Source: Candidatus Brocadiia bacterium (GTDB taxonomy: Bacteria; Planctomycetota; Brocadiia; CAIUPP01). Taken from it: DNA of 64,000 bases. Shown in pieces: positions 46,764 through 62,519 of the stretch (position 1 is the stretch's first letter; every line of letters begins with the position of its first letter). The DNA lies in NCBI GenBank assembly GCA_050015075.1, contig JBEKCB010000006.1, positions 121,581 to 185,580 on the forward strand, in the 5' to 3' direction. Under the pieces are notes generated by a model. It had not been told where the DNA came from. It made no database searches and saw only the letters and a program-made list of their open reading frames with translations. The translations under genes were made by a program, and so were the position numbers.

Positions 46764-49154
46764 ATGAAGCGGAAGACGACCGACGCCGGACGCCGCGGGC
46801 CGCGCACCAGGAGCGCCGCTCCGCCTCCGGAATCCGCCGTCATCGCGCTCCGCGTCCGGCAGATCGCTTTCGCCATCACGCTGCTCGCCGCGGGCCTTGG
46901 ACCGCTGGCGCCGAATTTCGAGGGCAACCCGGTCCTGCGGCTCATCATCCAGATGTTTTTCATCCTCTCCGGCGCGCTGTGGGTCATCGCGATGGCGCTC
47001 GAGGGCCGCGTGCGGATTCGGAGCACGGGCCTCGAAATCGTCCTGCTGCTCCTGGCGGGCGCGCTGGTCTGCGGCTGCGTCAACGCCGTCTACAAGTACC
47101 CGGCGATGCTGACGCTCTTCTCGTGGCTCTCCGCGATGGTCGCGTTCGTCTTCCTGGTCAACGAGACGCGCTCCCGGTGGCGGCGGCTGATGGTGCTGTT
47201 GATGATCGGCGCGGCGACGTTCACGATCTCGCTGCACGGGCTGCACCAGATTACGGTGGACCTGCCGCGGGCGCGCGCGGTCTTCGCGCAGGACCCGGAC
47301 GCGGTGCTTCGCGATCTGCGGCTGCCGGCGGACGCCGCATTCGACCTGTATGGCCGGCTGGAGAAAGACCGGATCTTCAGCACGTTCTTTCTGCCCAATT
47401 CCCTGGCGGGGTTTCTGATCCTGCTGGCGCCGGCGCTCATCGGGCTGACGATGGACTGGTGGAAAAGCCGTCCTTCTCGCATCCGAGGCAAGAGCGATGG
47501 CGATGTGTCAGACAGTCAGCCCGCGGCGGACGACTTCTCATACGTCAGCCTGGCGATCCGGGCGGGACTGCTCGTCCCGGTGCTGCTGGCTCTTTACTTC
47601 ACGCAGTCCAAGGGCGGCTGGCTGGCGTTTCTGCTCGCGGCGGCCGTTTTCGCGGTCTGGGCGTTCGGGGCGCTGCTGTGGCACCGGAGGCTTCACGTCC
47701 TGGCGGTCTGCGCGGGCTTGATCATCGTCTGGGCTGCCGCGCAGGTCTCCGGACACTTGCCTTCGCTGGGAGACTACTTCGGCTCGACCTCCGTTCGGTA
47801 CGGCTACTGGCGCGCCGGCGTTTCCATCTTCACCGAACACCCGCTGGTCGGAGTGGGGTTGGACAACTACGCGGATTTCTATGCGTCGAAGAAGCAGCCG
47901 GAGGACCAGGACGCACGCCGCGCGCACAACGACTACATTCAACTGGCGGCCGAAACCGGCCTGATCGGGATCCTGACCTACGGGGCATTCCTGGCGCTCT
48001 TCTGGCGAAGGGTAACGCGCATGGGCGCCGAGCCGGTCCTCGCGCAACCGGAGCCCGCCGCCTTGAACGCGACCGCCACGGCCGGCCTGCTGGCGTTGTC
48101 GGTGATGATCCTCGGGCTGGAGGAACTGTGCGGCGGCGCGCTGCGCGCCTCGACGGGCTTCTGGAGCTGGCAATGGCTCGCTGCGCTCTGGCTGGGCTGG
48201 ATGGCTTATCTCCTGTTGAACGCCCGGAGCCAGGACCCGTTCGCGCTGGGCCGCTCATCGTACGCGACCATCGGCATCGCGTGCGGGATCATCGCCTACC
48301 TCGCGCACAGCCTGGGCGATTTCCACCATTACATCGGCGGGACCCTTCAGACGGCGTGGATCCTCATGGCCCTGCTGCTCTCGGCCCGGCTCAGCGAGGA
48401 GAAGGAATCGTACGCGGTGGATCGCCCGATCGGGCCCGGCCAACGGCTCGGACTGGTGTTCGGAGCCGCAGCGATCGTCCTGCTGGTGCTCTACGGTTTT
48501 GTGGCGCGCGTCGCGGAGTCCAACGTCCTGCGCGAGCGCGCGCTCGAGCCGCGCCGTGCCGAAGAGGACTGCCGGCGCGACCTTGAGGAGGCGGTCCAAC
48601 GGTTCCCGATGGACGCGGAGAATCACGCGCTGCTCTCCGATTTTTACCTCGGCGAGTGGCGCATGGGACGCCGGCGGACGGAGCAGAACGTGTCGGTGAT
48701 CTCCCTGGCGATCCACAGCGCCAAGGACGCCATCGAGTTGAACCCGATGCGCTCCGAATATTACTCGCGGCTGGGGCGGCTGTGCGAGATTCAATGGCGC
48801 GAACGCCATCTGCCGCAGGATTACCAGGACGCGACGGCGGCTTACGCGAGAGCCGAGGAACTTTTCCCGAGCAACCCGGAGATGCCGTTGAACCTCGGCC
48901 GACTGTATGACGCGGCCGGGAATTACCAGGCCGCGTTGCCCAAATACATCGGCGCGCGGCGGCTGAGCGACGAGCAATATCACATCCCGCGCAAGTTCAA
49001 CGAGCGCGAACTGGCGGAACTGAGCCAGCGGATTCAGCAGTTGCAACTGGCCGACGTGGACCGGACGCCGCCGCCGCCGAACGCGTTCCGCCAGCCGCGC
49101 CTGCTGGGTTGGCCGCGCGGCGCGTCGCCGGCCGCTGCGCCGGAAGCGCCGTAA
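46764..49154 (+). CDS. O-antigen ligase family protein with C-terminal TPR region
   Basis: TQSKGG, GVGLDNY, AHNDYIQ; TPR-like helices. Confidence 0.85.
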   Translation: MKRKTTDAGRRGPRTRSAAPPPESAVIALRVRQIAFAITLLAAGLGPLAPNFEGNPVLRLIIQMFFILSGALWVIAMALEGRVRIRSTGLEIVLLLLAGALVCGCVNAVYKYPAMLTLFSWLSAMVAFVFLVNETRSRWRRLMVLLMIGAATFTISLHGLHQITVDLPRARAVFAQDPDAVLRDLRLPADAAFDLYGRLEKDRIFSTFFLPNSLAGFLILLAPALIGLTMDWWKSRPSRIRGKSDGDVSDSQPAADDFSYVSLAIRAGLLVPVLLALYFTQSKGGWLAFLLAAAVFAVWAFGALLWHRRLHVLAVCAGLIIVWAAAQVSGHLPSLGDYFGSTSVRYGYWRAGVSIFTEHPLVGVGLDNYADFYASKKQPEDQDARRAHNDYIQLAAETGLIGILTYGAFLALFWRRVTRMGAEPVLAQPEPAALNATATAGLLALSVMILGLEELCGGALRASTGFWSWQWLAALWLGWMAYLLLNARSQDPFALGRSSYATIGIACGIIAYLAHSLGDFHHYIGGTLQTAWILMALLLSARLSEEKESYAVDRPIGPGQRLGLVFGAAAIVLLVLYGFVARVAESNVLRERALEPRRAEEDCRRDLEEAVQRFPMDAENHALLSDFYLGEWRMGRRRTEQNVSVISLAIHSAKDAIELNPMRSEYYSRLGRLCEIQWRERHLPQDYQDATAAYARAEELFPSNPEMPLNLGRLYDAAGNYQAALPKYIGARRLSDEQYHIPRKFNERELAELSQRIQQLQLADVDRTPPPPNAFRQPRLLGWPRGASPAAAPEAP

Positions 49155-49162
49155 CTTTAGTC

Positions 49163-49192
49163 TTGACCCATGACGGAGCGTGGGGCTATAAT
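49163..49192 (+). promoter_or_regulatory. Putative promoter of the lpdA-hydrogenase-metVF operon
   Basis: TTGACC-18bp-TATAAT. Confidence 0.55.
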
Positions 49193-49249
49193 GCGCCCTC
49201 GCGTCATTTTCGCGAACGTTGGAATGCGCAGGGGCGGCCGGAGAGCAGC

Positions 49250-50623
49250 GTGAATTACGACATCCTCGTGGTCGGCGGCGGACCGGGCGGCTACGTCGCC
49301 GCGATCCGCGCCGCACAACTCGGCGCGCGCACGGCGCTCGTCGAGGAACGCGATCTCGGCGGCACCTGCCTGAACCGCGGTTGCATTCCCACCAAGGCGC
49401 TGGTGGAAAGCGCGCGCGCGTTCTCCACCGCTCGCCGCGGCGCGGAGTTCGGCGTCGTTTGCTCCGACCTCCGCCCGGATTACGCGCGGATGGGCCAGCG
49501 CAAGGACGAAGTCGTCGCCCGCCTCCGCAAAGGCGTTCAATCCCTCCTCCAGAAGAACAAGGTGGAGGTGATCGCCGGCCGCGGCAGGCTGGCAGACCGC
49601 CACACAGTCGAGGTGATTTCCTCGGGCGAACCGCGCAAGGTCAGCGCTCATCATCTCATCCTCGCGACCGGCTCCGAACCGCTGAAACCCGCAAGCTTCC
49701 CCTTCGACGGCAAATCGGTGCTGACGAGCGACGACGCGCTGCGGCTCCAGGAGATTCCGAAGAGCCTGCTGGTCGTCGGCGGCGGCTACATCGGCGTCGA
49801 GTGGGCCAGCATCTTCGGCGAACTCGGCGCGCGCGTGACGGTCGTCGAGATGATGGACCAGTTGCTCCCGCGCAGCGACGCCGACCTCGCGAAGGAACTC
49901 TTCCGCATCTTCAAGAAATCGGGGATGGACATCCATCTGCAGACGCAGGTCAAGAGCGTGAAAGTCCAGGCCGAGGGCGTGACGTGCGAGCTTTCCAGCG
50001 GGAAGAGCGTCGTCGCGGAGAAGGTGCTCGTCTCGGTCGGCCGCGCGCTGAACTCGGGCGAGATCGGGCTCGAAGCCGTCGGCGTCAAGTCCGAGCGCGG
50101 CGCGATCCTGATTGACGAACATTGCCGCACGAACGTGCCGAACGTCTACGCCATCGGCGACGTGACCGGCAAGATACAGCTTGCGCACGTCGCCTCGCGC
50201 CAGGGCATCATCGCCGCCGAATGCGCCACCGGGCACGACCGGAAGATGGACTATCGCGTCGTCCCGTCCTGCGTCTTCACGCACGTCGAGATCGGCTCGG
50301 TCGGCATGACCAGCGCCGAGTGCGCGGCGACGAAGATCGAGGTGAAGGAGTCGCGCTTCCCCTTCATGGCGCTCGGCAAGGCGCAGGCGATCGGCGAGAC
50401 GCAGGGTTTTGCGAAAATCATCGCCCAGGCGAAGAGCGGCGAGGTGCTCGGAGTCCACGTGATCGGCGCGCACGCCTCGGACCTGGTCGCCGAGGCCGGC
50501 CTCGCGATGGCGATGGAAGCCACCGTCGAAGAGATCGCGCAAACGATCCACGCGCACCCGACGATGCCGGAGGCGCTCTCCGAGGCCGCCATGGCCTGGC
50601 TCGGGCGCGGCATTCATTTTTGA
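49250..50623 (+). CDS. lpdA: Dihydrolipoyl dehydrogenase
   Basis: GGGPGGY, GGTCLNRGCIP redox disulfide, HAHPTMPE. Confidence 0.95.
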   Translation: MNYDILVVGGGPGGYVAAIRAAQLGARTALVEERDLGGTCLNRGCIPTKALVESARAFSTARRGAEFGVVCSDLRPDYARMGQRKDEVVARLRKGVQSLLQKNKVEVIAGRGRLADRHTVEVISSGEPRKVSAHHLILATGSEPLKPASFPFDGKSVLTSDDALRLQEIPKSLLVVGGGYIGVEWASIFGELGARVTVVEMMDQLLPRSDADLAKELFRIFKKSGMDIHLQTQVKSVKVQAEGVTCELSSGKSVVAEKVLVSVGRALNSGEIGLEAVGVKSERGAILIDEHCRTNVPNVYAIGDVTGKIQLAHVASRQGIIAAECATGHDRKMDYRVVPSCVFTHVEIGSVGMTSAECAATKIEVKESRFPFMALGKAQAIGETQGFAKIIAQAKSGEVLGVHVIGAHASDLVAEAGLAMAMEATVEEIAQTIHAHPTMPEALSEAAMAWLGRGIHF

Positions 50624-50651
50624 ATTCGTCTTTTGCATGAGGATTCTCACG

Positions 50652-50897
50652 ATGCCGGATACCGAAGTGAAACTGCCTTCCCTCGGCGACGGCGCGCCCG
50701 ACGCGGCGAACCTTTCGTTCTTCTTCGTGCGCGAAGGCGACGACGTCAAAGAGGGCGACGATTTCTGCGAGATGTTCACGGACAAGGCGACCTTCACGGT
50801 CCCCTGCCCGCTCAACGGGCGCGTGAAACAGATTCTGGTCCAGGAGAATCAGTCGGTCAAGGTGGGCCAACCGCTGGCGGTCGTCCAGACGGCCTGA
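50652..50897 (+). CDS. Stand-alone lipoyl-carrier domain protein
   Basis: E2-type lipoylation motif TDKA; alternative start at 50637. Confidence 0.85.
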   Translation: MPDTEVKLPSLGDGAPDAANLSFFFVREGDDVKEGDDFCEMFTDKATFTVPCPLNGRVKQILVQENQSVKVGQPLAVVQTA

Positions 50898-50933
50898 GCG
50901 GCGCGGCTCACGTGGAGCAGGAGGAACGGCGCG

Positions 50934-51812
50934 ATGGAACCCACGGTGAAGGAAATCCCGGTCGTCTGGTACCAGGCGGCCAGTTGCAGCGGCGATTCGG
51001 TCTCGCTGCTCAACAGCGCAAGCCCGAACGTGCGCAACATCCTGATTGACGAAATCATCCCTGGACATCACATCAACCTGCTCTTCCAGATGACGGTCAT
51101 GGCCGGCCAGGGCGAGCCGGTCATGGAGATTCTCCGGGATACCGCGGAGAACCGAAAAGGCGGTTACATCCTCGTGGTCGAGGGCACGATCCCGACCGCC
51201 GTCAACGGCGCGATGGGATCGGTCGGCGAGAAAGGCGGCAAGCCGCTGACGATGGTCGAGGCGGTGGACCATCTCGGCCGCAACGCCCTCGCCGCGCTGG
51301 CGGTCGGCACGTGCGCCAGCTTCGGCGGCATCTTCGCCGCCGAGCCCAACCCGAGCGGCTCGATGGGCCTGGCGGACTTCTTCCGCAGCCGCGGGATCAA
51401 GACGCCGGTCATCAACATCCCTGGCTGCCCGATGCATCCGGACTGGTTCACCGGAACGGTGGCGCACATCCTGCTGTTCGGACTGCCGCGCGCGGACCAG
51501 CTCGACGACGCCGGGCGCCCGCTCAGTTTCTTCGGGTCGCAGATTCACGAAAATTGTCCGCGGCGGCCGTCCTTCGACGCCGGCAAGTTCGCCAAGAAGA
51601 TCGGCGACGAAGGCTGCCTTTACCTCGTCGGCTGTAAAGGGCCGGTGAGCTACGCCGATTGCCCCGCGCGCGGGTTCAACAACCATACGAACTGGTGCAT
51701 CCAGGCCGGGTCGCCCTGCCATGGCTGCACGGAGCCCGGCTTCCCGGACAAGCTCTCGCCGCTCTATCAGAAACTGACTGAGGAGCGCCTGGCGCGGTTC
51801 TTCCTGAGTTGA
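50934..51812 (+). CDS. [NiFe] hydrogenase small subunit, no Tat signal
   Basis: VVWYQAASCSGD, VGTCASFGG, PGCP, HENC, CLYLVGCKGP, PCHGC. Confidence 0.92.
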   Translation: MEPTVKEIPVVWYQAASCSGDSVSLLNSASPNVRNILIDEIIPGHHINLLFQMTVMAGQGEPVMEILRDTAENRKGGYILVVEGTIPTAVNGAMGSVGEKGGKPLTMVEAVDHLGRNALAALAVGTCASFGGIFAAEPNPSGSMGLADFFRSRGIKTPVINIPGCPMHPDWFTGTVAHILLFGLPRADQLDDAGRPLSFFGSQIHENCPRRPSFDAGKFAKKIGDEGCLYLVGCKGPVSYADCPARGFNNHTNWCIQAGSPCHGCTEPGFPDKLSPLYQKLTEERLARFFLS

Positions 51813-51845
51813 ACGCGCTCTGGATTCCCCGGAGGAGAATGACCG

Positions 51846-53396
51846 ATGCAGAAGATCGCCATTGACCCCATCAGCCGCGTCGAGGGCCACCTGAAGATCG
51901 AGACGATGGTGGACCAGGGCGTCGTCAAAGAGGCGTCCGTCAGCGGCACGATGTTCCGAGGGTTCGAAATCTTCCTCAAGGGCCGCGACCCGTGGGACGC
52001 GCAGCGCCTGGTGCAGCGCGTGTGCGGCGTTTGCCCGGCCATCCACGGCGTGGCCGCGGCGCAGAATCTCGACGCGGCGTTCGGCATCACGCACCTCGTC
52101 CCGCACAACGGCCGCCACATCCGAAATCTCATCCTGGCGACCAATTACCTGCAGTCGCACATCCTGCATTTCTACGTCCTCGCGGCGCTCGATTTTGTGG
52201 ACCTCGCCGCCGTGGCCGACTACACCGGCGACGACGCGGACCTGAAGGCCGTGCGGCAGTTCCTCGACCGCGGCGCGGCGGCGCCGTTCCTGCCGCGCTA
52301 CGAAGGCGACTACCGGCTGACCAAGGAGCAGAACGTCCTGCTCGCGCGCCACTACGTCCAGGCGCTCCGGATGCGCGCGCTGGCGCACGAGGCGATCGCC
52401 CTCTTCGCCGGCAAGATGCCGCACGACGTCGGAGTTGTGCCCGGCGGCGTGACGGCCGGGCCGACGGCGGATAAGATTCTGGCCTTCGTTTCGAAGATCC
52501 GCGCCATCCGCGAGTTCATCGAGAACGCGTACCTGCCGGACCTGCTCACCGTCGCGCGAGCGTATCCCGATTACGCCGAAATCGGAAAAGGCGTGGAGAA
52601 CTATCTCGCCTGGGGCGCGTTCGACGAGGACCTGCACGTGGACCTCGGCGTGCGGCAGCGATATTTCCCCGGCGGCGTCATCCTCGACGGCAAGCTCAGC
52701 CCGGCAGACCCGTACAAGGTGTTCGAGTACGTGAAGCATTCCTGGTACACCGAGGACTGCGCGCGCGCGCCCGCGCAAGGCCAGACCGTGCCGGCGCCGG
52801 AAAAGCCGGAGGCGTACTCCTGGCTCAAGAGTCCGCGCTACGCCGGAACGGTGTGCGAGGTCGGGCCGCTGGCGCGGACGATGATCGCGTACACGGCCGG
52901 AAACCGCGAATGCAGGACGGAAGTCAACGCCCTGCTCTCGGAACTCAAGGCGACGCCCGCGGCGCTGAAGTCCGTCCTCGGCCGGCACGCGGCGCGCGCC
53001 ATCGAGGCGAAGCGCCTCGGCAAGATGGCGACGGATTGGGCCCTCGTGCTGAAGCCGGGCGAGCCGTTCTGCGCGGAGAGCAAAGTCCCGGAAAAAGGCG
53101 TCGGCTTCGGCTGCGTGGACGGGCCGCGCGGCGCGCTCGGACATTGGATCGAGATCGAGAATAAGAAGATCGCGCGCTACCAGTTGGTGGTCCCGACGAC
53201 GTGGAATTCTTCGCCCAAGGACGACCGCGGCCTGCCGGGTCCGATGGAACAGGCGCTGATCGGCGCGAAGGTGAAGGACGTGAAGAACCCCGTCGAACTG
53301 GCGCGCATCGTCCGTTCCTACGACCCGTGCCTGGCCTGCTCCGTCCACGTGCTGGACGCTCACCGGAACCTGACCGGAGTGGCTCGCATTGTGTGA
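51846..53396 (+). CDS. [NiFe] hydrogenase large subunit (group 1a-like)
   Basis: L1 RVCGVC and L2 DPCLACSVH (TGC Cys, not Sec), plus cleavable C-terminal tail. Confidence 0.95.
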   Translation: MQKIAIDPISRVEGHLKIETMVDQGVVKEASVSGTMFRGFEIFLKGRDPWDAQRLVQRVCGVCPAIHGVAAAQNLDAAFGITHLVPHNGRHIRNLILATNYLQSHILHFYVLAALDFVDLAAVADYTGDDADLKAVRQFLDRGAAAPFLPRYEGDYRLTKEQNVLLARHYVQALRMRALAHEAIALFAGKMPHDVGVVPGGVTAGPTADKILAFVSKIRAIREFIENAYLPDLLTVARAYPDYAEIGKGVENYLAWGAFDEDLHVDLGVRQRYFPGGVILDGKLSPADPYKVFEYVKHSWYTEDCARAPAQGQTVPAPEKPEAYSWLKSPRYAGTVCEVGPLARTMIAYTAGNRECRTEVNALLSELKATPAALKSVLGRHAARAIEAKRLGKMATDWALVLKPGEPFCAESKVPEKGVGFGCVDGPRGALGHWIEIENKKIARYQLVVPTTWNSSPKDDRGLPGPMEQALIGAKVKDVKNPVELARIVRSYDPCLACSVHVLDAHRNLTGVARIV

Positions 53397-53910
53397 TCTC
53401 GCGACATCTCTGCGGAACGACTGCGTGAGCGGCGCGATCGCCGTCGTCGGCGTCGGCAACCTGCTCATGGGAGACGATGGCGTGGGCATTGCCGTCATCC
53501 GGGAACTCGACAAGGCAGCGCCGCTGCCGGGGCACGTGGAGCTGTACGATGCGGGCACGGCGCTGCTGGACGTTCTGCCGGAGATCGAGCACTGCGCGCG
53601 CATCGTCCTCGTGGACTGCTGCCGCGCGGGCGGTGCGCCCGGAAGCATTTACCGGACGCGCATGCAACTGGACCAGTGGCAAACGGATCCGCTGGGCGAA
53701 TCGCTCCATGACCTGAACGTGCTGCACGCGCTGCAACTGCACCGGATCGTCACCGGGAAAATGAACGAGGTCGTCCTGATCGGCGTCGAGCCGGAGAGCG
53801 TTGTGCTCCGCGAAGGATTATCGCCCGTGCTGCGGGAGCGCCTTCCGGCGATCGTCGCAGCCGTGCGCGCGGAACTGGAAGCGCCTGCAAACAGCCGGCC
53901 CATTCAATAA
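53389..53910 (+). CDS. Hydrogenase maturation protease
   Basis: GVGNLLMGDDGVG, DAGT, SLHD; start may be GTG 53425. Confidence 0.92.
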   Translation: MCDLATSLRNDCVSGAIAVVGVGNLLMGDDGVGIAVIRELDKAAPLPGHVELYDAGTALLDVLPEIEHCARIVLVDCCRAGGAPGSIYRTRMQLDQWQTDPLGESLHDLNVLHALQLHRIVTGKMNEVVLIGVEPESVVLREGLSPVLRERLPAIVAAVRAELEAPANSRPIQ

Positions 53911-53960
53911 GGCTCAGGGCCGCCCTGAGCAAAGCCGAACGGGCGGCGAGGAGGAACTGA

Positions 53961-54716
53961 ATGAATGCCACGTCCAAGAAGAAGCTGGCCGAGGTCGTCA
54001 CCGCCTGCGGGCCGGCGAAGAATATCCTGCTGATCGGCTGCGGCGGCTGCCCGGTGGGGATGGAAACCGGCGGACCGGAGCAGCTCAAGAAAACCGCCGC
54101 CGCGCTCACCCAGGCGGAGAAGACCGTCACCGGCCAGATCATGATTGACATGGTGTGCAACAAGGCGCAGGTGGGCGTGCGACTCGGCCGGCATGTCCAG
54201 CAGGCCAAGGCCGCCGACGCCGTCGTCGTCTATTCCTGCGGTGTGGGCGTCCAGTCCGTCGGGAACGTGCTCCTGCGCCGCGTCGTCCCCGGCCTCAACA
54301 CCATCAACGTCGGCGGCCTGCAAGGGCTGTGGCCCGGCAAGGAACGCTGCGGCCAGTGCGGCGACTGCCTCCTGGCGCACACCGGCGGCATCTGTCCGAT
54401 CACCATGTGCACGAAGAGCCTCGTCAACGGCACCTGCGGCGGCACGAACCGCGGGAAGTGCGAAGTCAGCAAGAACAAGGACTGCGGCTGGTACCTGATC
54501 TACGAGCGCCTGAAGGCGCTGGGACAACTCGCCGAGCTTCAGCGCCCCGCCGAGCCGCGCAACCACGCCCTGCAGGACATCCCGGACGACCGCCGCGGGA
54601 CGATGCTCTGGGCGCTCGAGACCGAGGAGAAGGTGCAGCCGCCCGACCCGCCGAAGAAGAAGTTGAAGAAGAAAAAGAAGGGCGCCAAGGCCGTGAAGAA
54701 GGAGGCGAAGGCATGA
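53961..54716 (+). CDS. metV: Methylene-THF reductase Fe-S/Zn subunit MetV
   Basis: CGGC, SCGVGVQ, CGQCGDC...GGICPITMCTKSLVNGTCGG...CEV...CGW. Confidence 0.9.
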   Translation: MNATSKKKLAEVVTACGPAKNILLIGCGGCPVGMETGGPEQLKKTAAALTQAEKTVTGQIMIDMVCNKAQVGVRLGRHVQQAKAADAVVVYSCGVGVQSVGNVLLRRVVPGLNTINVGGLQGLWPGKERCGQCGDCLLAHTGGICPITMCTKSLVNGTCGGTNRGKCEVSKNKDCGWYLIYERLKALGQLAELQRPAEPRNHALQDIPDDRRGTMLWALETEEKVQPPDPPKKKLKKKKKGAKAVKKEAKA

Positions 54717-55612
54717 GCAAGCTCCAGGAATCGCTTCAGTCGGGCCAATTCACGATCACCGGCGAGATCGGCCCGCCCAAGGGCACCGACATTTCCCACT
54801 GCATGCACGGCGCGGACCTGATGAAGACGAAGGTGGTGGCCGTCAACGTGACGGACATCCAGACCGCCGTGATGCGCGTCGGCTCGCTCGCGGTCAGCGC
54901 CAAACTCGTCGAGCGCGGCATCGAGCCGGTGTTCCAGATGGTCTGCCGCGACCGGAACCGTCTGGCCCTGCAGAGCGACCTCCTGAGCGCAGCGATCCTG
55001 GGCATCGAGAACGTGCTGGCGCTCACCGGCGACCACACGCTCATGGGAGACCACCGCGACGCCAAGCCGGTATACGACCTCGACTCCGTCGGCCTGCTCC
55101 GCGCGATGGTCGCGCTCGAGTCGGGCCGGGACCTCGGTCGCGATTTCAAGGGCAACCCCAACCAGCTCGAAGGCGCGCCGAAGTTCCTCAAGGGCTGCTG
55201 CGTCACGCCGTGCGCGGAGGCCGTCGAGCCGCAGATCATCAAGCTCGAGAAGAAAGCCGAGGCCGGCGCCCAGTTCTGCCAGACGCAGGCGGTCTATGAC
55301 CCGGCCGCTTTCGAGCGGTTCATGAACGACGTCCAGCGGCGCAACATCAAGATTCCGATCCTCGTCGGCATCGTGGTCCTGAAGAACCTGGGCATGGCCA
55401 AGTACATGAACGGCAACGTCCCGGGCGTGGTCGTGCCGGAGCCGCTGATGAAAGAGCTGGCGGATACGCCCAAGGATGACATGAAGAAGAAGGCCATCGA
55501 GATCTCGGCGCGGCTCGTGCGCAGCATGCGGGCGATGTGCCAGGGCGCGCACCTGATGACGCTCGGCTGGGACGACACGGTCGCGCCCATCGTCGAGCAG
55601 GCCTCGGCCTAG
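54713..55612 (+). CDS. metF: Methylenetetrahydrofolate reductase MetF
   Basis: EIGPPKG, CRDRNRLALQSDL, LTGDH, GAQFCQTQ; ATGA overlap with metV. Confidence 0.93.
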   Translation: MSKLQESLQSGQFTITGEIGPPKGTDISHCMHGADLMKTKVVAVNVTDIQTAVMRVGSLAVSAKLVERGIEPVFQMVCRDRNRLALQSDLLSAAILGIENVLALTGDHTLMGDHRDAKPVYDLDSVGLLRAMVALESGRDLGRDFKGNPNQLEGAPKFLKGCCVTPCAEAVEPQIIKLEKKAEAGAQFCQTQAVYDPAAFERFMNDVQRRNIKIPILVGIVVLKNLGMAKYMNGNVPGVVVPEPLMKELADTPKDDMKKKAIEISARLVRSMRAMCQGAHLMTLGWDDTVAPIVEQASA

Positions 55613-55613
55613 C

Positions 55614-56078
55614 GTGACCGAGCGCATCCACGTCAGCCAGTCCGTGGACGAGACGCTGGCGCTGGGCGAGCGGATCGGCCGAGCGGCGCTGCCGGGCGAC
55701 GTGGTCGCGCTGTTCGGCGGGCTGGGCGCAGGAAAGACGGTCCTCGCGAAAGGCATCCTCCGCGGATTGGGCGGCGATCCGGACGACGCCACCAGCCCGA
55801 CCTTCACGCTGTTGCGGCAATACCAGGCCCGCCTGCAGTTGCATCACTTCGACGCCTACCGGCTCGGCACGCCGCGGGATCTTCTCGATATCGGCGCCGA
55901 GGAGGCGTTCTACGGCGGCGGAATCTGTGTGATCGAGTGGGCCGAGCGCGTGCTGGATGTGTTGCCCGCCGACCGGCTGGAGATTCACCTGGAAGTCAGC
56001 GGCGAGGCCCGGCGCGAGATCCGACTCTGCGCCGCCGGCCCGCGCGCGGAAGCGCTCCTCGGCCGAATGGGGCTGTAA
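55614..56078 (+). CDS. tsaE: tRNA threonylcarbamoyladenosine biosynthesis ATPase TsaE
   Basis: GGLGAGKT, SPTF, HFDAYRL, IEWAE. Confidence 0.95.
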   Translation: MTERIHVSQSVDETLALGERIGRAALPGDVVALFGGLGAGKTVLAKGILRGLGGDPDDATSPTFTLLRQYQARLQLHHFDAYRLGTPRDLLDIGAEEAFYGGGICVIEWAERVLDVLPADRLEIHLEVSGEARREIRLCAAGPRAEALLGRMGL

Positions 56079-56080
56079 CT

Positions 56081-56569
56081 CTACTCGATATGACGCGTCA
56101 CATCGCGCCAGCCTGAGATCTCTCTGCCGTAGATTCGCACCGGCGTGAGGCTCGTCACCCGCCAGGCGCCGTCCGCCTCTTTCCGGAATTCGGCCGCCCA
56201 TTCCAGGGCGCCCGACCAGACCGGGTATTCTCGCCTCGTGCTGCCCGAAACGCTCAGTTGCACGCGGGCCTGCGCGCCTGAAACGTTCACGGTCATCCAT
56301 TGGATTTTCCCGCTCGCGGAACCGTCGCTCAGGAACCTCTCCGCCAGGGACTTGAGGTGCTCCCGGGACATGGCCTCGGTGTCGAAGTCGGCCGAGATGT
56401 TCGAGAAAAGGAGGTCAATGTTCCCTTTCGCCGCCGCATCCGCCATTTCCTGCACGGTCCGCTCGATGCGCTTCTTATCGGTAACGATGTACCGGTTCAG
56501 CAGCATCGCCAGGGCCATGGCGCCGAGGATCGCCAGCGCAATCCGCACCTGGTTCCATGAAATATTCAT
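56081..56569 (-). CDS. Membrane-anchored hypothetical protein (NTF2-like fold possible)
   Basis: GAGGAGGA RBS, N-terminal TM segment, DGAWRV end. Confidence 0.7.
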   Translation of the reverse strand: MNISWNQVRIALAILGAMALAMLLNRYIVTDKKRIERTVQEMADAAAKGNIDLLFSNISADFDTEAMSREHLKSLAERFLSDGSASGKIQWMTVNVSGAQARVQLSVSGSTRREYPVWSGALEWAAEFRKEADGAWRVTSLTPVRIYGREISGWRDVTRHIE

Positions 56570-56638
56570 GGTTTACGTTCTCCTCCTCGCATGCTATCAT
56601 CCATTCCGAAAGAACTTCTGTCAACCTCCGGAGGCGGC

Positions 56639-57064
56639 GTGCGAATCCTGGGTATAGATTACGGCGGTAGGCGGATCGGGCTGGCCGTGAGCGATCCGGG
56701 CGCCATCATCGCGCGAGGTCTTCCCACGCTCAAGAACGAGGGCGAGGCTGAAGTGCTCGCGGCGATTCGCCGGCTGGTGGAGGAATACGAAATCGCCGAG
56801 ATCGTCGTCGGGCTCCCGCGAAACATGGACGACTCGATCGGGCCGCAGGCGCAAAAGACGATGCGATTCGCCGACGGGCTGAAAGTCCTGGGCTGCAATG
56901 TCCATCTCGTGGATGAGCGACTGACGACGGAGCAGGCGAGGCGGGCGATGACCGAAGCGGGACTCTCCCGTGAACAGCAGCATCGCCGCGTGGACCGCGT
57001 GGCCGCGCAGCTCATACTGCAGATCTACCTGGATTCTTCCCGAAAACCGAAGCCGGAGGATTGA
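56639..57064 (+). CDS. ruvX: YqgF/RuvX pre-16S rRNA nuclease
   Basis: LGIDYGGRRIGLAVSD, VVGLP, DERLTT, DRVAAQLILQ. Confidence 0.93.
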   Translation: MRILGIDYGGRRIGLAVSDPGAIIARGLPTLKNEGEAEVLAAIRRLVEEYEIAEIVVGLPRNMDDSIGPQAQKTMRFADGLKVLGCNVHLVDERLTTEQARRAMTEAGLSREQQHRRVDRVAAQLILQIYLDSSRKPKPED

Positions 57065-60656: not shown

Positions 60657-62519
60657 TTAGAACAGCCCCACCACTTTCCCGGTCTTCATGTCGAGGTCCA
60701 CGTCATAGAACACGGGCCGGCTGGGCAGGCCGGGCATGGTGCGCATGTCGCCGCAGAGCGGGTAGAGGAAGCCGGCGCCGACGGAGGCGCGGATGTCGCG
60801 CACCGGGATGCGGAAGCCTTTCGGCACGCCCTTCCAGCCCGGGATGTGGCTGAGGCTCAGGTGCGTCTTGGCCATGCAGATCGGCAGGTTGGCGTAGCCG
60901 AGTTTCTCGTACAGCGCCACCTTCTCGTCCGCCACCGGCAGGAAATCCACGCCGTCGGCGCCGTACACGCGCGTGGCGATCGTCTCGATCTTTTTCTTGA
61001 TCGGCATGTCGAGCGGATACAGGAACTCGAACCGCGTCGTCTTGTTGGCGGCGGAGAGGACCGCCTCGGCCAGCTCGACGGCGCCCGCGCCACCCCGCGC
61101 CCAGTGGTCGGATTTCACCGCCGCCTCGGCGCCGGAACTCTGCGCGATTTTCTTGAGCAGCTCCACCTCGCGGTCCGTATCCGTGGAGAAGGTGTTGATC
61201 GCGACGACGACCGGCACGCCGAACAGGCGGGCGATCTGGATGTTCTTGACCATGTTCGCGGCGCCCTTTTCGAGCGCGGGCAGGTTCTCCTCGATCAGCT
61301 CCTTCGGCAGCGGCTTGCCGGCGACGATCTTGCCGACGCCGCCGTGCATCTTCAGCGCCCGGACGGTGGCGACGATCACGACGCAGTTCGGGATCAGCCC
61401 GCTGATGCGGCACTTGATATCCATGAACTTTTCCATGCCGATGTCGGCGCCGAAACCGCTCTCCGTGACGACGTAGTCGGCCAGCTTCAACGCGATCTGG
61501 TCGGCCACGATCGAGTTGTTCCCGTGCGCGATGTTGGCGAAGGGCCCGGCGTGGACGAAGGCGGGCGTGCCTTCGAGGGTCTGCATCAGGTTCGGCCGGA
61601 TCGCGTCGTTCATCAGCACGGTCATCGCGCCGGCGCAGCCGAGGTCCTCGGCGGTCACGGCGTTGCCCAGGCGATCGGTGCCGATCACGATGCGGCTCAG
61701 GCGCTCGCGCAGGTCTTCCGAGCTGGTCGTCAGCGCGAAGATCGCCATGACCTCGCTGGCCACGGCGATGTCGAAGCCGGTCTCGCGGGGATAACCGTTG
61801 TCGCGGCCGCCGATGCCGCAGACGACCTGCCGGAGGGACCGGTCGCTCACGTCCAGCACGCGGTTCCACGTGATCGTATACGGGTCAATGTTCAGCCGGA
61901 CGAGCCGGGCGCGCTCTTCCACCTTCATGTCGGAGGGCTTCTTCGCCTTGATCCCGAGCCGCCGGGCGCGGCGGAGCAGCGACGGCGCCCATTCGTCCTT
62001 CGGGAACAGCGCTCTGTAGAGCTGCTTGTCGGTCATATTACGCTCGTGCATGATCCGGGCGTCAATGGCCGCGGAGAGCAGGTTGTGGGCGACGCCGACA
62101 GCGTGGATGTCGCCGGTCAAGTGGAGGTTGAAGTCCTCCATCGGCACGATCTGGCTGTAGCCGCCGCCGGCGGCGCCTCCCTTGATGCCGAAGGTCGGGC
62201 CCATGGACGGCTGGCGGATGCAGGTGAAGACTTTTTTCTTGAGATGCGCGCCGAGCGCCTGCGACAGGCCGACGGTGGTCGTCGTCTTGCCCTCGCCCAG
62301 CGGCGTGGGCGTGATCGCGGTCACGTCAATGTACTTGCCCTGCGGCTTACGGGCCAGGCGGTCGCGCACGCTCAGGTGCACTTTGGCCTTGTAGTTCCCG
62401 TAAAACTCCAGTTCCTCCGGCAGAATCCCCGCTTCCTCGGCCACCTGACGGATCAGCTTCATCTTGCACGCCTGTGCAATGTCAATGTCGCTGGGCACGC
62501 TAATCTTGCTGACTGCCAT
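60657..62519 (-). CDS. fhs: Formate--tetrahydrofolate ligase (620 aa, long form)
   Basis: [47 protein letters not shown]. Confidence 0.97.

Follow-up and report, generated by a model that had tools for sequence, protein, structure and literature searches.

We analysed a 64,000-nt stretch of DNA (hereafter the window; contig JBEKCB010000006.1, positions 121,581 to 185,580 of the forward strand, assembly GCA_050015075.1) from a Planctomycetota metagenome-assembled genome (MAG) of a Candidatus Brocadiia bacterium, in which a [NiFe] hydrogenase is encoded in one operon-like cluster with both subunits of a MetVF-type methylene-tetrahydrofolate (methylene-THF) reductase. The genome measures 4.6 Mb at 65% G+C and is 93.6% complete, and the window lies on its contig C6. 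Eight genes run head to tail on the + strand at 49163-56078: lpd (49250..50623, GTG start), encoding dihydrolipoyl dehydrogenase (TIGR01350, 567.5 bits, cut-off 408.8); lip (50637..50897), encoding an 86-aa stand-alone E2-type lipoyl domain protein (PF00364, 1.9e-16); hydS (50934..51812), encoding the 292-aa hydrogenase small subunit (PF14720 and PF01058); hydL (51846..53396), encoding the 516-aa large subunit (NF033181, 660 bits, cut-off 600); a gene for a hydrogenase maturation endopeptidase of the HyaD/HybD type (53389..53910; TIGR00072); metV (53961..54716), encoding a 251-aa protein of the hydrogenase-linked type (PF12225); metF (54716..55612), encoding the catalytic subunit of the reductase (PF02219), the first nucleotide of which is also the last of the metV stop codon; and tsaE (55614..56078), 1 nt 3' of metF. 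TsaE has an unrelated function, and its gene is probably co-transcribed with metF.

Judged from open reading frame (ORF) coordinates, the distances between successive genes from lpd to tsaE are 13, 36, 33, -8, 50, -1, and 1 nt. The sole strong promoter-like site on the + strand of 48800-57000 is a sigma-70-like promoter 5' of lpd (TTGACC-18-TATAAT, 49163..49192, + strand, 11 of 12 consensus matches); promoter-like sites numbered four against 0.7 expected from shuffled sequence, and no terminator-like site was detected on the + strand ahead of 56555 in the operon scan. A first-pass annotation of this DNA had described the genes from lpd to metF as co-oriented, spaced by about 50 nt or less, and placed behind one promoter, with fhs 5 kb away. 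All seven genes were matched to their families on the + strand, and fhs, encoding the formate-THF ligase of the Wood-Ljungdahl methyl branch, was located at 60660..62492 on the - strand, 5 kb beyond metF. The same genome encodes acsB 14 kb upstream of the window. An RNA-library (metatranscriptome) run, in which the share of sampled words matching was 0.08, yielded 17 short contigs on the window, five with at least 99% likeness, and none or nearly none over most of hydS, the protease gene, metV, and metF. One 206-nt contig with zero differences from the window spans the lpd stop codon into the lip start. Being contigs of an RNA library, these pieces prove neither transcription nor an operon.

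The association of hydrogenase and reductase genes is widely conserved. Relatives were collected in three sets, comprising 66 loci from one genome per species, 80 metagenome loci searched with an alignment of 20 members of the clade described here, and 28 sites from 401 sampled Planctomycetota genomes, with the window proteins located on the first two sets by tblastn. A single-protein scan of one genome per species recovered few clade members (L014 and L042) because exact peptide patterns were used. Among 133 near-full-length large subunits (14 partial rows excluded), FastTree resolved one clade of 50 rows with Shimodaira-Hasegawa (SH)-like support of 97. Within this clade, metV/metF lay within 3 kb in 45 rows, the downstream flank was shorter than 1.5 kb in the other five, and no row was unlinked; among the 83 rows outside, 65 were unlinked, 18 were too short to judge, and none was linked. 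Three of the excluded partial rows (L134, L136, L146) likewise have MetV beside the hydrogenase. IQ-TREE (LG+C20), applied to 62 rows, separated the 29 clade rows among them from the rest by a branch with an SH approximate likelihood ratio support of 90. Among the Planctomycetota genomes sampled, hydS-hydL-protease-metV(-metF) was seen at 14 loci with an identity of 53% or above and at the partial locus L186; two further loci are cut off within the protease gene, and loci at 51% identity or below have no metV. The synteny search across MAGs suggested by the first-pass annotation thus showed hydS-hydL-(protease)-metV-metF to be the gene order of all 45 judged clade rows and of another 15 Planctomycetota genomes. 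At an identity of 55% or above, over 120 protein clusters are present in public data, and the MAG labels among the clade members listed are limited to 'Armatimonadota' and 'Pseudomonadota'. The hydrogenase-MetVF pairing recurs in many uncultured anaerobes and is a real, conserved module.

Genes near the module often belong to the Wood-Ljungdahl pathway. Across 48 loci, neighbors included FolD (13), Fhs (12), a CooC-like ATPase (9), NuoF-like (8) and NuoE-like (7) proteins, FchA (6), Lpd, AcsB, and AcsC (5 each), and AcsD and AcsE (4 each), and AcsB was encoded in five of five module-bearing Planctomycetota genomes tested. Together with the organism's own acsB and fhs, these neighbors indicate that the MetVF of the operon is a Wood-Ljungdahl enzyme. 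The module varies in its details. One metagenome locus (L148:11576-12921) carries a diverged tandem pair of MetV genes between hydL and metF, and acsB, acsC, and acsE lie upstream. No protease gene was seen between hydL and metV in nine loci (L042, L087, L094, L099, L102, L106, L108, L113, L148), and in L042, L094, L099, and L148 HydL terminates with the His after which the extension would normally be cleaved off.

Both hydrogenase subunits find their closest solved structures among periplasmic [NiFeSe]/[NiFe] enzymes of Desulfovibrio and Desulfomicrobium (2e-124 for HydL and 3e-72 for HydS). HydL carries the Ni-binding motifs RVCGVC and DPCLACSVH, and its residues C60, C63, C495, and C498 are invariant in 20 relatives. 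The C-terminal Ni motif is encoded with a Cys codon, not with selenocysteine (Sec/TGA), the frame is open under table 11, and the match to the [NiFeSe] profile NF045518 (522 bits) falls below its cut-off of 780. A 15-aa C-terminal extension fits the presence of a protease gene in the operon, and HypD is encoded in the same genome. In HydS, 11 of the 12 Fe-S ligand positions are standard and the medial cluster has four Cys. The proximal CxxC motif reads C-S-G-D (residues 18-21; 50985-50996), with Asp21 replacing the second Cys, and the proximal cluster may be Asp-ligated or altered. This Asp is found in the window and in L014, that is, in two of 45 clade rows, the other 43 having Cys. In L085, Asp stands at the first proximal-cluster Cys instead.

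The hydrogenase lacks the features of an exported, membrane-attached enzyme. No twin-arginine translocation (Tat) signal (RRxFxK) and no C-terminal membrane anchor were found on the window HydS, which stops 13 aa beyond the family domain. It aligns with the mature chain of the periplasmic NiFeSe small subunit 4kl8_S from residue 5 onward, and with profile NF045520 from position 37 of 314. An upstream alternative start that would supply a Tat signal was considered and ruled out, since the ORF starts only 36 nt after the lip stop codon and this gap leaves no room for it. The start position and the mature-chain alignment agree with the first-pass description of a small subunit without a signal. 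Its further statement that no cytochrome b gene is present also held: every gene of the operon was assigned to another family, leaving no cytochrome b or c3 partner there, and the single PF01292 (cytochrome b family) match in the whole genome lies on contig C33. The absence of a Tat signal on HydS indicates that the enzyme is cytoplasmic. The same absence characterizes the clade, with the twin-arginine motif found in 0 of 43 judged small subunits inside it and, by strict pattern, in 65 of 73 outside. The remaining eight comprise three variants recognized by eye (L127, L130, L131), four clostridial proteins without the motif, and one at a contig edge. Four loci of Clostridium and Romboutsia (L059, L060, L072, L074; 33-34% identity) encode a small subunit without the motif and have no adjacent metVF. 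A related Tat-bearing clade (L015, L125, L131, L138, L144, L145, L152, L178-L180) has the large subunit gene before the small one, again with no adjacent metVF.

Two sister genera of the same family provide a natural experiment. In G402 and G403 the locus is collinear as lpd-lip-metV-metF-tsaE, with no hydrogenase genes; G403 has no large-subunit homolog at 1e-20 and G402 only one of 48% identity on another contig. MetV is the most divergent protein of the locus, at only 33-35% identity to its window counterpart, compared with 57-59% for TsaE, 64-65% for Lip, 67% for Lpd, and 75-76% for MetF. In the MetF tree (FastTree) the window pairs with the G402/G403 genera (support 99), and this group of four pairs with the hydrogenase-linked L086 and L102 (100); in the MetV tree (FastTree), the MetVs of G402 and G403 do not pair with that of the window. 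The hydrogenase and a particular MetV evidently come and go together while MetF stays, whichever the direction of change, as is expected if the hydrogenase docks to MetV. Within a single family the operon thus exists with and without hydrogenase, only MetV changing.

MetV itself is rich in conserved Cys. Residues 27, 30, 66, 130, 133, 136, 145, 150, 159, 167, and 175 are invariant and C93 nearly so (44 rows), with four conserved Cys in the alpha/beta N-terminal domain and eight in the PF12225 domain. The N-terminal 112 residues gave chance-level rows only against Pfam at E values up to 10, and no sequence relatives of MetV were found in the PDB. Its AlphaFold2 model (mean predicted local distance difference test score, pLDDT, 88.7) retrieved nothing from the PDB with Foldseek at E 0.001 or better, and a wide VIA-align search returned generic Rossmann-like binding-protein lobes alone (best Z 9.7). 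These searches showed no specific likeness of MetV to MvhD or any other redox protein. At the C-terminus (54636-54713) the window MetV has a lysine-rich tail, PPKKKLKKKKKGAKAVKKEAKA, which is also found in L014 and in none of the other clade MetVs inspected. Modeling MetV with the small subunit, as the first-pass annotation had proposed, gave a qualified answer. The prediction of HydS with MetV(1-215) scored 0.34 against 0.01 for the best of three controls, with contact agreement between runs of at least 58% and partner pLDDT of at least 85, which passes a mark that 58 of 80 solved complexes, and 2 of 110 mismatched pairs, also pass; the pass is a weak one, as passes at or below 0.60 comprise just seven of the 80 solved complexes and both of the passing mismatches.

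Our best explanation, to which we assign a probability of roughly 60%, is that hydS-hydL-protease-metV-metF forms a soluble, cytoplasmic H2:methylene-THF oxidoreductase cassette within an older lpd-lip-metV-metF-tsaE operon, the hydrogenase having descended from periplasmic group 1 (1a/1b-like) uptake enzymes with loss of the export signal. In the predicted scheme, HydL would oxidize cytoplasmic H2 at its Ni-Fe site. The electrons would leave along the three Fe-S clusters of HydS, which has no export signal, enter the Cys-rich MetV, and finally reach the MetF flavin, where methylene-THF would be reduced to methyl-THF for the Wood-Ljungdahl pathway. The hydrogenase would travel with its own type of MetV, and in the window genus hydS-hydL-protease-metV would lie within the older operon. 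The potential of H2/H+ is -414 mV and that of methylene-/methyl-THF about -200 mV, so H2-driven reduction of methylene-THF would be exergonic even at a few Pa of H2. The recurrent pairing of the hydrogenase with MetVF suggests that hydrogen gas drives the formation of methyl-THF directly.

The genome encodes other redox partners that bear on this proposal. A second metV-metF pair (L011, G000:C4:8429-12070, - strand) lies behind the gene for a 658-aa flavoprotein with Fer4_20 and Pyr_redox_2 domains, NfnB/GltD-like, with an MvhD-like (FlpD) end, and appears to encode a different, NAD(P)H-linked kind of MetVF. The locus adjoins two response regulators and a GAF histidine kinase, and the MetF encoded there clusters with those of certain hydrogenase-linked loci (L106, L109, L114, L116). 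An HdrCBA-MvhD locus is present on contig C44, and a group-3b-like NAD(P)-linked hydrogenase is also encoded outside the operon, which itself contains no hdrABC or mvhD. A further 'hydrogenase' match, on contig C3, proved to be NuoD of complex I.

Several points weigh against direct transfer from the hydrogenase to MetVF. The second metVF, the group-3b-like hydrogenase, and HdrCBA-MvhD together mean that H2 could reach MetVF indirectly, and the organism has at least two routes to methyl-THF. Direct coupling would waste energy that other acetogens are thought to conserve at the methylene-THF step. The HydS of the window genus has Asp for a proximal-cluster Cys (two of 45 rows), the HydS-MetV complex is predicted with a weak pass only, and the RNA run gave short contigs alone, with no clear transcript of hydSL-metVF. 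Synteny points to a link in function; it does not by itself establish that the proteins form a complex or which way electrons flow. The MetV tree was built without reference hydrogenase-free MetVs, so that the assignment to a different MetV type rests on identity and placement only, and we found no biochemical or proteomic work on a hydrogenase-MetVF enzyme in the full-text literature.

The first-pass annotation had also proposed that the cytoplasmic hydrogenase might be the electron partner of MetVF, of an Lpd-NAD(H) link, or of both. The former half of this proposal withstands the refuting condition named there, a gene order not conserved in relatives; the latter does not, as Lpd is near the module in only five of 48 loci (upstream in the window, L014, and L128, and after metF in L094 and L099) and lip only in the window and its 97% twin L014. 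Lpd is the sole TIGR01350 match above cut-off in the genome, the next-best Lpd-like match being a protein on contig C12 that matches NF004991 ('FAD-containing oxidoreductase') and is not Lpd. Three E1beta-E2 loci and GcvH-GcvPA are also encoded, and the 1.5-kb flanks seen at these loci contain no Lpd gene. In the 86-aa lip product the lysine of 'TDKA' aligns with the E2 lipoyl lysine; the catalytic acyltransferase domain (PF00198) is absent, three PF00198 genes lying elsewhere in the genome, and there is no GCV_H (PF01597) match, the true GcvH genes being on contigs C29 and C49. Its relatives are proteins of about 81 aa (24 clusters at 65-94% identity), which suggests that the true lip start may be the Met at 50652. 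Lip is present in 36 of 41 relatives of the class, and lpd-lip-metVF-tsaE is conserved in three genera of the family, including the sister genera without hydrogenase. In two loci of another family of the class (L205:1495-3222 and L208:1495-3223), an approximately 80-aa lip gene lies directly 3' of lipoyl synthase (radical S-adenosylmethionine and LIAS_N domains) and is followed by a DNA polymerase III delta-prime gene, a hint of a lipoyl-relay role. Lpd is most likely the shared E3/L-protein of the three 2-oxoacid dehydrogenase loci and of glycine cleavage, and Lip a lipoate-related carrier. The lpd-lip pair is best seen as an older, hydrogenase-independent neighborhood of metVF, a tie like that in clostridial Wood-Ljungdahl clusters; lpdA adjoins metVF in Clostridium ljungdahlii, according to passages in PMC8760232, as lpd stands with metVF here.

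Other readings of the operon would give Lpd and Lip a larger part. In a bifurcating complex like MvhADG-HdrABC, H2 oxidation would drive methylene-THF reduction together with the endergonic reduction of ferredoxin, or of the lipoyl protein and then of NAD+ via Lpd. Such a complex would use the gap of about 200 mV between the potentials above that is otherwise lost, and both Lpd and a lipoyl carrier are indeed encoded in the operon; Lpd recurs beside the module at varied positions in three more loci (L128, L094, and L099), and the NuoF-like (8 of 48) and NuoE-like (7 of 48) neighbors point the same way. Nonetheless, we consider bifurcation unlikely, because the operon encodes no HdrA-like or other known bifurcating flavoprotein, Lpd and Lip are missing from 43 of 48 module loci, the sister genera keep lpd-lip-metVF without a hydrogenase, and lip is found throughout the class and stands 3' of the LipA gene at both other loci examined. 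In the passages of PMC8760232 on this topic, Oeppinger et al. raised an LpdA/GcvH-linked bifurcating MetVF as a possibility, but judged the lipoyl scenario 'highly unlikely'. The specific version in which HydSL-MetVF is a flavin-based bifurcating, H2-dependent methylene-THF reductase, whose second, lower-potential acceptor could be Lip re-oxidized by Lpd to give NADH, strikes us as quite improbable; were it true, it would answer how MetVF-type acetogens conserve energy at the methylene-THF step and explain the recurrence of lpd beside metVF. Lpd and Lip might instead be working parts without bifurcation, H2 reducing Lip and Lpd making NADH, or NADH feeding MetVF through them, as a hub of H2, NADH, and methylene-THF. 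The tight spacing, the one promoter-like site, the lack of a terminator-like site between the genes, the 206-nt RNA-library contig joining the lpd stop codon and the lip start, and the occurrence of lpd-lip-metVF-tsaE in three genera are all consistent with such a hub. It is nevertheless unlikely, given that the lpd-lip-metVF association predates the hydrogenase or survives without it, that the operon has no enzyme able to move electrons between Fe-S clusters and a lipoyl disulfide, that the three E2 loci and the glycine cleavage system have no candidate E3 other than Lpd, and that lip follows lipoyl synthase in both loci examined in another family.

The genes could also be neighbors without mutual electron transfer, the hydrogenase serving a soluble carrier such as ferredoxin that feeds several enzymes. 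Purified MetVF of Clostridium ljungdahlii does accept electrons from reduced ferredoxin, as reported in parts of PMC8760232 and PMC8515935. However, a shared pool hardly accounts for linkage in 45 of 45 judged clade rows and in 0 of 65 judged rows outside, for a MetV type that changes together with the presence of the hydrogenase while MetF is unchanged, or for translational coupling and a gene order kept across phylum-level labels, and we hold this arrangement to be rather unlikely. The enzyme might finally run in reverse, with MetVF oxidizing methyl-THF and the hydrogenase venting H2 in an oxidative Wood-Ljungdahl pathway, for example in syntrophic oxidation of acetate or methyl groups. [NiFe]/[NiFeSe] relatives of group 1a are good H2 producers, the nearest solved relatives here are NiFeSe enzymes, and the all-Cys medial cluster typical of NiFeSe enzymes is found in 37 of 45 clade small subunits. 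Evolution of H2 from methyl-THF at -200 mV would, however, require H2 near 1e-7 bar (calculated from the potentials above), and the genomic context does not tell the direction; we regard this mode as very improbable.

The proposed H2:methylene-THF oxidoreductase resembles several known systems in part. The nearest solved relatives of both hydrogenase subunits are the periplasmic group 1a/1b enzymes (Hys of Desulfovibrio vulgaris Hildenborough, 5jsu/3ze6; Desulfomicrobium baculatum, 1cc1/4kl8; D. vulgaris Miyazaki, 1h2a), with which HydSL shares the Ni-binding motifs, three predicted Fe-S clusters, an all-Cys medial cluster, and a C-terminal extension with its own protease. In contrast to these enzymes, HydSL has no Tat signal (and is thus cytoplasmic), Cys for Sec, an Asp proximal ligand, and no adjacent cytochrome partner gene, and it always stands beside metVF; its identity to the nearest Tat-bearing relatives is only 41-50%. 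Acetobacterium woodii has a hydrogen-dependent CO2 reductase (HDCR) in which small Fe-S subunits connect the hydrogenase module straight to an enzyme that reduces a one-carbon substrate, with no soluble carrier. The likeness to HDCR is one of principle only, as HDCR joins an [FeFe] hydrogenase to a formate dehydrogenase and the catalytic parts are not homologous.

On the reductase side, the operon resembles type II MetVF, described for Clostridium ljungdahlii and others in passages of PMC8760232 and PMC8515935, in having MetV and MetF with no adjacent Hdr, MvhD, or RnfC2 gene. It differs from type II in that the proposed input is a dedicated hydrogenase rather than free reduced ferredoxin, and that its MetV is of the hydrogenase-travelling type. 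As in the HdrABC-MvhD-MetVF of Moorella thermoacetica and marine Chloroflexi, MetVF would be wired to a larger redox module of the same cluster; the passages on MetVF in PMC5736913 and PMC9586279 describe Hdr/MvhD-linked forms only. Unlike the Moorella type, the operon has no Hdr or MvhD, these being on contig C44, with the MvhD-like end on the flavoprotein of contig C4. The first-pass annotation had not recognized the arrangement, a fair assessment considering that we found one sentence on it in print: for Ca. Bipolaricaulia MAGs from Great Salt Lake, PMC11287216 mentioned in 2024 'HysAB adjacent to MetVF' and suggested the hydrogenase as donor for methylene-THF reduction. That mention concerns two operational taxonomic units of another phylum and, in the part of the paper where it stands, comes with no clade analysis, remark on Tat, or Lpd/lipoyl genes. 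Apart from it, the full-text literature searched yielded no work on a hydrogenase-MetVF enzyme, whether biochemical or comparative, although supplementary tables may hold further mentions.

The electron donor of MetVF-type methylene-THF reductases is described as an open problem of acetogen bioenergetics in passages of PMC8760232, and a cytoplasmic hydrogenase tied to MetVF by its operon is a concrete candidate for that donor. If the proposal is correct, H2 would be usable directly for the most oxidizing step of the Wood-Ljungdahl pathway, a reaction favorable at very low H2. Changes confined to MetV within one family point to MetV as the docking subunit. Judged by its genes, the module departs from known MetVF-type reductases in having a hydrogenase as its putative electron input, and from known group 1 hydrogenases in being cytoplasmic and putatively docked to MetV. 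In the relevant part of PMC11287216, one survey labelled such enzymes group 1a 'respiratory uptake' hydrogenases, which they resemble in sequence, and similarity-based metagenome surveys probably count them as periplasmic H2 respiration.

Contig C12, which carries the next-best Lpd-like match of the genome, also bears a 467-aa ORF (L189:12-1415, + strand) whose match to acetyl-CoA synthase beta (NF003379, 5.9e-49, below cut-off) is confined to the C-terminal part of that protein. This ORF adjoins the gene for a 512-aa disulfide oxidoreductase containing flavin adenine dinucleotide (FAD; NF004991, 817 bits).

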